Assembly (NCBI RefSeq): GCF_041886205.1
Contig: NZ_CP169029.1
Direction: 5' to 3' (one strand)
Origin: Escherichia coli
GTDB lineage: Bacteria > Pseudomonadota > Gammaproteobacteria > Enterobacterales > Enterobacteriaceae
Length of the DNA stretch: 64,000 nt
Below, piece after piece: positions 9,001 through 21,000 of the stretch; the stretch's first letter is position 1, and every line of letters begins with the position of its first letter. Made by a program: the position numbers.

Positions 9001-12000
9001 AATTTGAACCGCTGCTGGACGATCTGCTGACTATTCCGGTTGCTGAAAACGCTAACTGGTCGGCGCAAGAGATCCAACAAGAGCTGGATAACAACGTGCA
9101 GGGGATTCTGGGGTACGTGGTGCGCTGGGTGGAGCAGGGGATTGGTTGTTCAAAAGTGCCGGATATTCACAATGTGGCGCTGATGGAAGACCGCGCAACG
9201 CTGCGTATCTCCAGCCAGCATATCGCCAACTGGTTACGTCACGGTATTCTGACCAAAGAACAGGTGCAGGCGTCGCTGGAGAATATGGCGAAAGTGGTTG
9301 ATCAGCAAAACGCTGGCGATCCGGCTTACCGTCCGATGGCGGGGAATTTCGCTAACTCGTGTGCTTTTAAAGCTGCCAGCGATTTGATCTTCCTCGGCGT
9401 GAAACAGCCAAACGGTTATACCGAACCGTTATTACACGCCTGGCGTTTACGCGAAAAAGAAAGTCATTAATAGCGTCAAAAAAGCCCCGGCAAGTTTTAT
9501 TGTCGGGGCTATGATAGTAACTGCGGTAGTACATTTATCCCGGAAATAACCGGAGCGATTATCAGGGTTTAACAATATTAAATACCCGTAGCGCATTACT
9601 AGCGGGCCTAAAACAACAATATGGACATCTTAACGATACTCTGCGCCTGCGTGTGCGGAACAGAAACCCTTACCCGATATACTTGTTATGCCAGAGGTAG
9701 CAATTGCGTTAGCGGCGTACTGTTGCTGTAAAGTATAACGTCTATATTTTACAGTTCAGTCCTCTTTTGCTTATTACAACCTTAAGTATATCAAGCATAT
9801 AAAGATAATAAGAGACTGAACAATATGGTTACCTGGACCCAAATGTATATGCCAATGGGAGGACTGGGGCTATCCGCTCTGGTCGCCCTGATCCCGATAA
9901 TATTCTTCTTCGTTGCACTCGCGGTATTACGTCTGAAAGGACATGTCGCTGGAGCAATAACCCTTATATTATCTATCCTGATTGCAATATTCGCCTTTAA
10001 AATGCCGATTGATATGGCATTTGCTGCTGCGGGCTATGGCTTTATTTATGGATTATGGCCAATTGCGTGGATTATTGTCGCGGCGGTGTTCCTGTATAAA
10101 TTAACCGTTGCCAGCGGGCAGTTCGATATTATCCGCAGCTCGGTTATCTCCATCACCGACGATCAGCGTTTGCAGGTGTTACTGATTGGTTTCTCCTTTG
10201 GTGCGTTGCTGGAAGGAGCGGCTGGCTTTGGTGCTCCGGTGGCGATTACCGGTGCGCTGCTGGTGGGCCTGGGCTTCAAACCGTTATACGCGGCGGGGTT
10301 GTGTCTGATTGCCAACACTGCGCCAGTGGCGTTTGGTGCGTTGGGCGTGCCGATTCTGGTCGCCGGTCAGGTAACGGGAATCGATCCGTTCCACATTGGC
10401 GCAATGGCGGGACGCCAGTTACCGTTCCTGTCGGTTCTTGTGCCGTTCTGGCTGGTAGCAATGATGGACGGCTGGAAAGGGGTGAAAGAGACGTGGCCAG
10501 CGGCGCTGGTTGCTGGGGGAAGCTTTGCTGTCACTCAGTTCTTTACCTCTAACTATATTGGTCCGGAACTGCCGGATATTACTTCGGCGCTGGTGAGTAT
10601 CGTCTCACTCGCTTTATTCCTTAAAGTCTGGCGGCCGAAAAATACCGAAACGGCAATCAGCATGGGGCAATCCGCAGGTGCGATGGTGGTAAATAAGCCA
10701 TCTTCTGGCGGTCCCGTGCCTTCAGAATATAGTCTGGGGCAAATCATTCGTGCGTGGTCACCGTTTTTAATCTTAACGGTGCTGGTCACCATCTGGACCA
10801 TGAAGCCGTTTAAAGCGTTATTTGCTCCGGGCGGCGCGTTTTATTCACTGGTGATTAATTTCCAGATCCCTCATTTGCATCAACAAGTGTTGAAAGCGGC
10901 ACCCATTGTCGCCCAACCAACGCCAATGGATGCGGTGTTTAAATTCGACCCTCTCTCGGCTGGCGGCACCGCTATTTTTATTGCGGCGATTATCTCTATC
11001 TCCATCCTCGGTGTTGGGATCAAGAAAGGTATTGGCGTCTTTGCCGAAACGCTAATTAGCTTGAAGTGGCCGATACTGTCGATTGGCATGGTGCTGGCGT
11101 TCGCCTTCGTCACCAACTATTCTGGCATGTCCACCACGCTGGCGCTGGTACTGGCAGGTACAGGCGTGATGTTCCCGTTCTTCTCACCGTTTCTCGGCTG
11201 GCTGGGCGTATTCCTTACCGGCTCGGACACCTCCTCTAACGCCCTGTTTGGTTCACTGCAATCGACCACGGCGCAGCAAATCAACGTCTCTGACACTCTG
11301 CTGGTGGCAGCAAATACCAGCGGCGGCGTAACTGGCAAGATGATCTCCCCGCAATCTATCGCCGTGGCCTGCGCCGCGACGGGCATGGTGGGCCGGGAAT
11401 CTGAACTGTTCCGCTACACCGTGAAGCACAGTCTGATTTTTGCCAGCGTTATCGGCATTATCACGCTGTTGCAGGCGTATGTGTTTACCGGGATGTTGGT
11501 AAGTTAATAGAATAGTTATGCCTGACGTTAATACAAACCCAGTCTATCAGACTGGGTTTGTTAGTATTTCCGATATCAGACAGGGAAAATGCCTGGTCAG
11601 AAATGGGGCGTAATTCGGTTTTCTCAAAAAAGTAAAAAACGCCTTGTGGGCGGGGGATTATCTTACGACATGTAATTTGTTCCATACTTTTAAACTCCCC
11701 ATTGTTATGAAGTAAAGGCGTTATCTTTTTATCCGTTCAAACTTTAGCTCAAATTTGTAGCATGCAGATTCCGGTATTTTTCCTGATACCAGAAAAAAGT
11801 CACTGGAGGAAAGGTTGTGATAAAAATCACAAATTAAGTCAGGTTACTGGAGATAAAGTCTGCAACAGAGAATTATCGTAGTCTGTGTACCTCAACCAGT
11901 ATTTTAAAGGCTCTGTTACATGGAAGAAAACACAAGGCAGCGTACAGAAAATTATATTTCAGCAAAAAACCAGCATCCCGCCTGGATACTCCTTGCCACT

Positions 12001-18000: not shown

Positions 18001-21000
18001 CCCGACTGTTAGACGTGCGGTTTTCAGGAGAAGCCAGCGAGCAGGGATTAACAACTTTTCTTGATGCTTTTGATGAGTCCAGTCACTGGGTTTTAGTTGT
18101 ACCATTATCACCCGGCTTACTTCCTTTTAAAAAATGCCGGGTAACAACGGCGGAACTGGCAGAAACAACATTACCTGCGTCGCAAGTACTGGTGGTTGAA
18201 AATGAGCAGTGTCTGCATCATCTTCCAGCATTATCTGACACTATCGCGATTTTAGGCTGTGGCCTGGACGTGCAATGGCTATCCAGTTCTGTTCTGGATG
18301 AAAAACGCGTTGCTTATTGGGGGGACATGGATAGCTGGGGATTACTGATGCTGGCGAGAGCCAGGCGCTGTCGTCCGACGCTTGATGCCCTGCTCATGAA
18401 CCGTGAGTTGTTTGAGCAGTATGCCAGTCATAGCGCCGTTCCAGAACCGGTCATAGCGAAGGAAGCTGTACCTGATGGCTTGCTTAACGAAGAGGCCGAT
18501 TTTTATCGCTACTTAACCCGTTTACCGTGTGGTCGTCTGGAGCAGGAGTTTTTGCCAGTGGGGATTGCGGAAGAGGTGCTTCTCAGGTGGGGAAAAGAGA
18601 GTTAAAAAAGTCATGCTTGCTCTGGAAGGTTATTTACGCGGTATTTTGTAGTGGTTGTTGCGAAAGTCTGCGTTGATGGTCCTGATACCTTACCGGGTAG
18701 AGGGACTTTCCATCAGTCAGTTTAGATACTGTGGCAACTGTCGCCTTTAGGTGGACAAATGCATAAATTATTAAACTATTAAATTTCTTGTTTTCAGGCA
18801 GCAGAGAGAAGGTATATCAGAGGGTACTGAGGTGTATAAACGTCACGAACATCCGTGAAAAGGCGAAAAAAACCAGCCAATAGATAATGCTTTGCAATGG
18901 CCAGAAATCTACCGTAGCCAGAAAGTGAAAAAGCCCCGCTTTGCAGCGAGGCCTTATGAATAGTGGTGCCGGACTCGGAATCGAAGAATGCTTCTATCAT
19001 GTTGATATTATTTTATTTTGTTTGGTTTGGTGAAATATGTACCCTCTTTTGTACCCGCAGTCCCTTTTGATATCGAAAGGGAATCAAACTCGGGGTCAGG
19101 CTGAGAGCACAGAAGGAAAGTGCCTGGCTATTATATCGTTAATTCTGTCAATCAGCTCCAGCCTTTTGAAAGTGATGTGTGCAGATCCACCCTTCTTAAA
19201 GTATTTAATGATGAACATCTCATCTTCATAGCGTCCTTTACCCTGAACGGACTGTATGTGGTCATCCAGATTAATGGTGATATTCCCTCGGTTGTCGGGG
19301 ATCGGTTTACCGCTGAGCAGATGCAACATTCTTTCCAGGTCAGCCAGGCGATCTGCCTGCATTCCACTGATAAGATGAAATCTATGGTCACCCCCGTTTT
19401 TGCAACACTGATTTTTGATTAATGGTTGGCTTGCTTAAATCTATCCGGCGTCTCTGTGGGCAAGGATGCCCGCGCCCCGATGAGTTCCGCACCTGATAAT
19501 CCTAAAAATCCCCTCGGCTTCAGTGAGCCATTTCATCTGTTAGGTTTTTAATCAGGTCGATTTGCCGTTCATGTCATCAATAATCAGTCTTCGCAAAACC
19601 AGAAAGGTAACTTGTATCTTATTGTTTAAAATAAACTAATTGAGTTATATCAGCATCTATATCAGGCCTGATATTCTTTTTTCTGAGTAGTGATTGCCCA
19701 GGCAATTCGAGCCAGTTTATTTGCCAGAGCGCAGGTAACCACATTCGAATGCTTCTTGTTGAGTTGCTCCCGAACCCACTCAGCAAGTTTTCCATGCTTG
19801 CGTTCAAGTCGCATTATGAATGAGCGGGCACACTGAACCAGTAACCGGCGTAAATTTTTATCACCTCGCTTACTGATACCCAACAGAGTCGATTTTCCTC
19901 CAGTGCTATACTGCCGGGGAACAAGTCCTGTGGAAGCTGCAAAATCCCTGCTGCATGAGAACTGTTTCCCGTCACCAAGTTGCGACGATAGTAAGCTGGC
20001 AGTAATCGGACCAACACCAGGAATTGTCATAATGCGCTGAGCGGTATCATCAGCGTTGATTGACTGACTTAATTCTGATTCCAGCTCTGCTATTTGCTCA
20101 ACAAGGTAAAAGTAGTGGGTATGCAACCTCACCAAAAGGCGGCTCAGATATTCGGGGATTTCGTGTTCAGCCAACACGAGAGACAACCGTTTTATTACAG
20201 CATCACCTATCGGCAGGCTGATTCCAAATTCCAGCAAGAAACCGTGGATCTGGTTGGTTGTTTTCACTTTATCTCTGATGAGCGATTCTCTGACCCGGTG
20301 TAACGCCCTCATGGCCTGCTGGGTCTCAGTTCTTGGCTGGACAAAACGCATTGATGGTCGTGAAGCCGCTTCGCATATGGCTTCTGCATCAACAAAATCA
20401 TTCTTATTACTTTTGACAAACGGGCGAACGAACTGTGGAGAAATCAGCTTAGTTTCATGCCCAAAATCAGAGATACAGCGAGCCATAAAGTGTGCACCCG
20501 CACAGGCTTCCATTACAACAACTGAGGGCGGACATGTCGCCAGAAACTGCATCAGTTTAGTACGGGTAAATTTTTTACGCAGAAGAGCCTTACCAGACTT
20601 GTCTTGACAATGAATGTGGAAGGAGTGCTTTCCGAGATCGATACCAATAAGTGTGATGTTCTGCATGATGGTCTCTCCGTTAAAGGGATTTACCTTAACA
20701 GCGTACTGCTGTTAAGGTGGGGGTGACCATATCATTATCCCCACTGGTCCCATCTCACCAGATTGTTGACGATAATTTTACTGCCAAATTTACAGGGTGA
20801 GTTGGTTTTGTAATCCCAGCTCAGCCCTTTGAAGACGTTGATCACTCCCCGTTCAAACACTTCATCTTTGTTCTGGTGCAGTTGTTCAAATGTGCTCAGA
20901 ATGTTCGCTTCGCTGATTTCCGGAAAATTATCATATTCCAGTGACCTGGACCTGACTGAGGTGGAGCAGATAACGTCCGTATTCTCGTTGACCACTTCCG

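Follow-up and report, generated by a model that had tools for sequence, protein, structure and literature searches.

Exploring a 64,000-nucleotide stretch of an Escherichia coli chromosome (RefSeq assembly GCF_041886205.1, contig NZ_CP169029.1; hereafter the window), we found that positions 11920-18605 carry a complete type I Wadjet (jetABCD) operon, lying between glcA and a 3'-end remnant of the tRNA-Phe gene pheV. The four open reading frames (ORFs) are uninterrupted and co-directional on the plus strand in the order jetA-jetB-jetC-jetD; jetB and jetC overlap by 4 nt and jetC and jetD are separated by 1 nt. jetA (11920-13416) encodes a kleisin-like DUF3375 protein of 498 aa, jetB (13422-14171) a MukE-like DUF4194 protein of 249 aa counted from its ATG, jetC (14168-17455) an SMC/MukB-like ATPase of 1095 aa, and jetD (17457-18605) a nuclease subunit of 382 aa carrying DUF3322 and JetD_C. 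All four proteins matched the PADLOC models JetA1, JetB1, JetC1 and JetD1 over their full length with E values from 1e-116 to 0 (JetA, E = 1.3e-272 over residues 1-498; JetB, E = 1.3e-116; JetC, 1624 bits; JetD, E = 5e-193), and proteins identical to JetA and JetB of the window carry Pfam domains PF11855 and PF13835. In JetC the Walker A motif GPTGSGKT is intact at residues 43-50 and a Walker B motif (IILDEAF) is found in the C-terminal head, while residue 248 of JetD is the glutamate that was altered in the PDB chain JetD(E248A).

The top PDB matches of JetC were chains of 8AS8, 8BFN and 8Q72 and that of JetD was the JetD(E248A) chain of 8Q72, all of them structures of the type I Wadjet system of E. 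coli GF4-3, on which published biochemical and cryo-EM work was done (bioRxiv 10.1101/2022.10.04.510915 and 10.1101/2023.11.03.565488). GF4-3 carries the same four genes in the same order and at the same locus (glcA-jetABCD-pheV), with 98.6% nucleotide identity across the full 7.5-kb segment. Its proteins differ from those of the window by 25 amino-acid substitutions summed over JetA (496/498 identical, 99.6%), JetB (244/249, 98.0%), JetC (1081/1095, 98.7%) and JetD (378/382, 99.0%), and both the Walker A motif and E248 of JetD are conserved between the two. The system is thus a known one, the GF4-3-type E. coli Wadjet, and represents neither a new system nor a new mechanism. JetABCD of GF4-3 restricts circular plasmids in vivo, and in vitro it cuts circular DNA and leaves linear DNA uncut (bioRxiv 10.1101/2022.10.04.510915). 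Because the operon of the window is nearly identical to this characterised orthologue (98-99.6% protein identity), it is predicted to cleave small circular DNA and to restrict plasmids: JetABC would extrude loops as an SMC-type motor, recognise small circles of DNA and activate the JetD nuclease, and cleavage of the circle would then restrict the plasmid. The window shows where in the chromosome the best-studied Wadjet system of E. coli naturally resides, which may be of use for studies of plasmid restriction in natural isolates, and what it adds is the anatomy of that locus, figures for its frequency and decay, a linkage to tRNA-Phe across genera, and an annotation artefact.

The artefact concerns jetC. 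The RefSeq/PGAP annotation splits this gene into a 5' pseudogene of 156 nt ("ATP-binding protein") and a 3' coding sequence ("SbcC/MukB-like Walker B domain"), leaving about 1.8 kb between the two pieces unannotated; all the complete E. coli genomes that were checked show this, GF4-3 included. We considered whether JetC is broken and rejected this, since the ORF of the window is uninterrupted and identical in sequence to that of strain wlxctx60, since GF4-3 is split likewise and yet the structure of its 1096-residue JetC chain has been solved, and since other gene callers return a protein of 1095 aa. The split is thus a product of annotation. RefSeq users meet JetC as two fragments even in GF4-3, and finders of defence systems could overlook the operon for the same reason.

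To the left, the operon adjoins the glc operon, of which glcB (7299-9470) is unambiguous and glcA (9825-11507, plus strand) is identified as the glycolate permease gene by the NCBIfam GlcA equivalog (1273 bits; cut-off 1121). Homology to K-12 MG1655 spans the glc genes and ends at position 11500, 7 nt inside glcA, so that the last 7 nt of the gene (11501-11507) are not homologous to K-12; the final codons read GTA AGT TAA in the window and GTC TCG TAA in K-12, both specifying Val-Ser-stop. About 4350 other E. coli genomes likewise lose homology at 11497-11500. Downstream of glcA we found an intrinsic-terminator-like hairpin with a 13-bp stem and a T-rich tail (11533-11561, plus strand). The first-pass annotation had taken the glcA terminator as the boundary of the operon; a hairpin is indeed present there, but it lies within the segment that is non-homologous to K-12, so it belongs to the jet-type segment and differs from the glcA terminator of K-12. 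The breakpoints relative to K-12 fall at 11500/11501 and at ~18953-18963, rather than at the 11.6-11.9 kb and 18.6 kb proposed at first.

To the right, jetD is followed by a spacer specific to the E. coli jet-type locus (18606-18695) and by a 268-bp pheV-proximal segment (18696-18963), which is also found beside remnants of a type VI secretion system (T6SS) in strains TB06052 and UTME-3. This segment includes a minus-strand pheV terminator (18930-18955). Integrase-bearing pheV islands have a tRNA-proximal arm to which positions 18804-18963 are ~86% identical (181 genomes fall in the 80-90% identity band), and 18900-18963 matches exactly the arm adjoining the integrase in the pheV island of O157:H7. 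Homology to K-12 resumes at ~18953-18985, which comprises 12 nt of pheV flank and the 3' end of the tRNA. The tRNA-Phe remnant itself (TGGTGCC-GGACTCGGAATCGAA; 18964-18985, minus strand, 22 nt) equals the reverse complement of the last 23 nt of tRNA-Phe minus one C, and begins 358 nt past the jetD stop codon, in good agreement with the ~360 bp noted in the first-pass annotation. At the exact position of the remnant, intact pheV is found in GF4-3, PT62, LHM10-1, CUWW06 and FHI_NMBU_11, and in GF4-3, PT62 and FHI_NMBU_11 it lies 358 nt after jetD. Three unrelated sequences on the left meet the 268-bp segment at the same junction (18696/18698), namely the jetD spacer, the 3' end of tssL in TB06052 and the end of an ImpA/tssA pseudogene in UTME-3. 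This suggests that the junction is either a preferred recombination joint or the outcome of common ancestry followed by deletions.

The remnant is at the same time the distal direct repeat of a large pheV island that starts at position 18986, raising the possibility that jetABCD is cargo of this island. The two are adjacent, in this window only, and the tRNA remnant separates them. In GF4-3 and FHI_NMBU_11, glcA-jetABCD is directly followed by intact pheV-yqgA-speC, and in several draft genomes, too, intact pheV adjoins the operon and no island is present; these empty-site genomes refute the cargo reading. Jet-bearing strains that have the remnant in place of pheV carry differing islands beyond it, which resemble that of the window only partially (83-94% similar), whereas the jet segment of the window is 99.97% identical to that of wlxctx60. 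We concluded that the large island is a later insertion, independent of the jet operon, by which pheV, still directly after the operon in GF4-3, was displaced in the window. The early view of the islet and the island as separate elements was therefore correct. ARAGORN detected no complete tRNA gene in the window, and as the tRNA-Phe gene thus lies outside it, the later island exceeds 45 kb.

The jet islet fills the entire glcA-pheV interval, in which most E. coli carry sslE and the genes of a type II secretion system (T2SS-beta). The gene content given for K-12 in the first-pass annotation, type II secretion remnants and sslE/yghJ, is borne out by the order pheV-yghD-yghE-yghF-yghG-pppA-yghJ-glcA. 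At least a third type of occupant exists: CUWW06, TB06052 and UTME-3 carry a cluster of Flp-pilus, fimbrial and T6SS genes there, comprising a Flp/Tad-like pilus, a TcfC-like fimbrial cluster and remnants of tssB, tssC, tssK, tssL, tssM and tssA, and in ~13 genomes a 3' piece of jetD is joined to this occupant. The interval is therefore a real variable locus, and its description as a recombination hotspot accords with published work, in which the pheV locus next to T2SS-beta is called "hypervariable" and independent losses or replacements of T2SS-beta are described for K-12, O157:H7 and Crooks (PMC3707838). Like the pheV-associated islands at that locus (PMC3707838, PMC7545054), the jet islet lies 3' of pheV, is sporadic and accompanies loss or replacement of T2SS-beta, as in O157:H7, K-12 and Crooks. 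The islet has a tRNA-proximal arm homologous to those of integrase-bearing pheV islands, but no integrase. Hotspot #5 of Hochhauser et al. 2023 is defined as yghD-yqgA (tRNA-Phe) (PMC10121019). Unlike that hotspot and the pheV islands, the jet islet abuts the glcA stop codon and has no yghD flank, and because yghD is absent here the definition cannot capture the jet locus, a point of concern to annotators of defence islands who rely on yghD-anchored hotspots. Among the four Wadjet mentions in the supplementary text searched for that study, at least two are type III, at hotspots #7 and #37 (PMC10121019).

To determine how frequent the locus is, we counted it among 5426 complete E. coli genomes. 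The full-length jet segment was present in 8 and the glcA-jetA junction in 12; 30 carried all or part of the segment at ≥95% identity, and ~20 further genomes had fragments only. By comparison, the K-12-type junction, consisting of the region downstream of glcA and the 5' end of sslE, was found at ≥80% coverage in 4078 and as any match in 4308. The 3' end of glcA was present in 4364 genomes, while ~1060 gave no megablast match to it, implying that the variable region reaches into the glc operon in about one fifth. Four of the eight full-length loci carry a nonsense mutation in jetA (W206*, TGG to TAG, equivalent to window position 12536): those of CFIAFB20190167, JNEC-KY202 and FHI_NMBU_11, and that of JNEC-KY174 as judged by an identical score. 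With W206* in about half of the full-length loci, only ~4 of the complete genomes have an apparently intact operon (wlxctx60, CX08, CX12 and GF4-3). Partial loci have arisen by an IS1 deletion from yghQ into jetD (PT62 and LP5-1), via ISEc52 (LHM10-1 and CP52E), via ISKpn26 (6EVA) and by an internal deletion from jetA to jetD (W444 and MB53); a tssL'-jetD' fusion is common to ~13 genomes, e.g. CUWW06. All 10 contexts returned for the exact JetB protein place it between the glc operon and pheV or an island, one of the ten with an IS1-mediated upstream deletion, and no match to the cassette was found among the 72,556 plasmids of PLSDB. Together, jetABCD is a rare, decay-prone accessory cassette in E. 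coli.

These counts bear on a reading in which the glcA-pheV interval held jetABCD ancestrally, as core content, and sslE/T2SS-beta came in from outside. Among E. coli, the jet segment diverges about as much (0-1.4%) as adjacent core genes do (0-1.5%), which is compatible with long residence. Against this stand the 8 genomes with the segment compared with ~4100-4300 with the sslE junction, the frequent decay of the locus, and a similarity across genera that exceeds that of the flanking core genes by about 10 percentage points (see below), and we regard an ancestral jetABCD as very unlikely.

A scan across genera, with one genome per species, detected the cassette in nine: Pluralibacter, Enterobacter, Leclercia, Mangrovibacter, Erwinia (Erwinia sp. 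ErVv1), Kluyvera, Klebsiella (K. grimontii), Cedecea and Kosakonia, with JetA identities of 92-98%. At the DNA level these cassettes are 87-90% identical to the window between 11729 and the jetD stop codon, where homology ends; a further block matches 11661-11733. The region upstream of jetA (11661-11919, plus strand) is thus common to the cassette in other Enterobacteriaceae, as two blocks (11661-11733 and 11729-11919) that are 78-87% identical and that are separated in the other genera by an extra ~75 bp. jetC of E. coli is 87.5-90.4% identical to that of the nine genera in a star-like pattern, whereas the flanking core genes reach 77.3% (speC, Kosakonia) and 79.1% (gss, K. grimontii); this difference indicates that the cassette spreads horizontally between genera.

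The cassette is itself linked to tRNA-Phe in these genera. A tRNA-Phe gene lies downstream of jetD, in the orientation of the window, in Mangrovibacter, Erwinia sp., Kluyvera and Kosakonia, the order in the last being jetD-tRNA-Phe-yqgA-speC. In K. grimontii, Erwinia sp., Cedecea and Pluralibacter a 20-21-nt repeat of the tRNA-Phe 3' end is found ~480 bp upstream of jetA, preceded by a pheV-type terminator. Like the pheV islands, the cassette is bounded there by a tRNA-Phe 3'-end repeat; in E. coli the distal repeat is degenerate. Its position corresponds in the window to 11507-11525 (TAGAATAGTTATGCCTGAC), a direct-repeat-like sequence whose resemblance to the tRNA-Phe 3' end is weak (4 of 500 shuffles reach its score) and whose Pluralibacter counterpart, TAGAATAGTGGTGCCGGAC, is identical at 16 of 19 positions with flank counted in. 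Further into the left arm, 11552-11569 resembles the end of an island, in a degenerate form of which none of 500 shuffles reaches the score. A minus-strand hairpin at 11621-11654 is 85% identical to the terminator in the pheV flank of K. grimontii (0 of 500 shuffles) and is also similar to the pheV terminator of K-12. An Rfam scan of 11400-19700 (E ≤ 1) gave one chance snoRNA match and no known RNA element in the arms. The neighbours of the cassette in other genera include an AbiEi-like gene, a Schlafen/AlbA_2 protein, ORFs without assignment and fimbrial genes. In the gap between jetD and tRNA-Phe, Erwinia sp. ErVv1 encodes a 729-aa Schlafen/AlbA_2 + HATPase_c_4 protein and Kluyvera carries the AbiEi-like gene, both small defence-like genes.

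We think it somewhat probable that 11501-18963 is a 7.5-kb islet with Wadjet as its only cargo, that it represents an old tRNA-Phe module without an integrase, and that a larger island was later added in tandem. According to this account, the cassette would be a horizontally moving, tRNA-Phe-associated module of the Enterobacteriaceae without an integrase of its own, which may have entered an E. coli lineage at the 3' side of pheV, probably once. The integrase and the T2SS-beta (or T6SS) genes would have been lost along the way. The larger pheV island would have integrated in tandem into pheV afterwards, thereby separating the tRNA gene from its former 3' end (18964-18985) and from the jet islet; that the island beyond 18985 came later follows from GF4-3 and FHI_NMBU_11, in which glcA-jetABCD is followed by intact pheV.

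Several observations weigh against this account. We found no integrase ORF or fragment in 11508-18963, and none beside the cassette in Mangrovibacter, Erwinia sp., Kluyvera and K. grimontii. A general repeat search of 11300-19300 revealed no clean direct repeats flanking the operon; an ungapped search for further copies of the tRNA-Phe 3' end in the window likewise returned none flanking it and only short repeats at chance level; a look for short repeats at its edges had been proposed as a check in the first-pass annotation. The repeat at the left end in E. coli is degenerate, its 16/19 nt including flank. With the hairpin at 11621-11654 placed within the left arm, the order of elements departs both from a simple layout of flank, repeat and island and from the arrangement in the other genera. 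The composition of the segment is not atypical (GC of 50.0%, against a window average of 50.6%); the GC of the glc operon is 54.1%. Finally, the C-terminus of glcA (Val-Ser-stop) is retained with different codons, and homologous or allelic exchange with a donor having glcA beside the cassette fits this better than random deletion.

The last point leads to the alternative, which is the reading of the first-pass annotation, that homologous recombination, with glcA and pheV/yqgA as its anchors, simply exchanged the whole glcA-pheV interval for that of an Escherichia or a relative that already had jetABCD there, with no site-specific integration. We consider this possible, if the less probable origin. 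It accounts for a left breakpoint inside glcA with the last two codons recoded synonymously, for a right breakpoint at the pheV 3' end, and for the lack of both an integrase and clean repeats in the window. It also draws on three strains (CFIAFB, FHI_NMBU_11 and JNEC-KY202) whose identity to the window is 99.7-99.8% in the jet segment against only 98.5% in the adjacent glcA/glcB; because of this difference, movement of the jet segment between E. coli lineages by recombination or allelic replacement is likely. Allelic replacement leaves unexplained, however, the adjacency to tRNA-Phe and the jetA-side repeat in genera in which glcA does not adjoin the cassette, as well as the match of the pheV-proximal 64-160 bp to island arms, and it probably accounts for how the segment passes among E. 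coli strains and not for how it was first acquired. The first-pass inference of a small replacement islet is supported, as jetABCD is not core and the stated K-12 gene order is right, but replacement by recombination gives an incomplete picture of a cassette that elsewhere is tRNA-Phe-associated and has a repeat on the jetA side.

The tRNA-Phe module that we favour resembles a known class of elements. Cis-mobilisable elements (CIMEs), a concept from the integrative and conjugative elements of Streptococcus thermophilus, are att-flanked, lack an integrase and arise by tandem accretion beside integrative elements. The jet cassette is alike in being an integrase-less module with tRNA-derived repeats in other genera, standing here in tandem with a larger tRNA-integrated island; it differs in that its outer repeat is degenerate in E. 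coli. The integrase of the adjoining island lies outside the window. We therefore suggest only tentatively, and as a rather doubtful extension, that the cassette is CIME-like: tRNA-Phe repeats would enclose it, and the integrases of larger pheV islands integrated in tandem would mobilise it in cis, which would spread it across genera. If so, an anti-plasmid defence would ride on the recombination machinery of other mobile elements, and the 18696/18698 junction would mark a preferred recombination point.

Outside the jet islet, the distal end of the later pheV island (18986-20946, minus strand) holds a DUF4942-type gene that is contiguous in TB06052 and CX12 and is split in the window by an IS110-family element of 1357 bp (~19380-20736; transposase ORF 19662-20666, minus strand), labelled "IS110 family RNA-guided transposase" by NCBIfam. 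By similarity to annotated loci, the island (18986-64000) carries a CP4-44-like module with DUF4942, DUF957, DUF5983 and CbtA-type genes. It further harbors an Ag43/Cah autotransporter (28491-31685), several copies of IS66-family elements and an ORF of 1179 aa (58057-61596) that combines filamentous-haemagglutinin-type repeats with a short IS66-like stretch.

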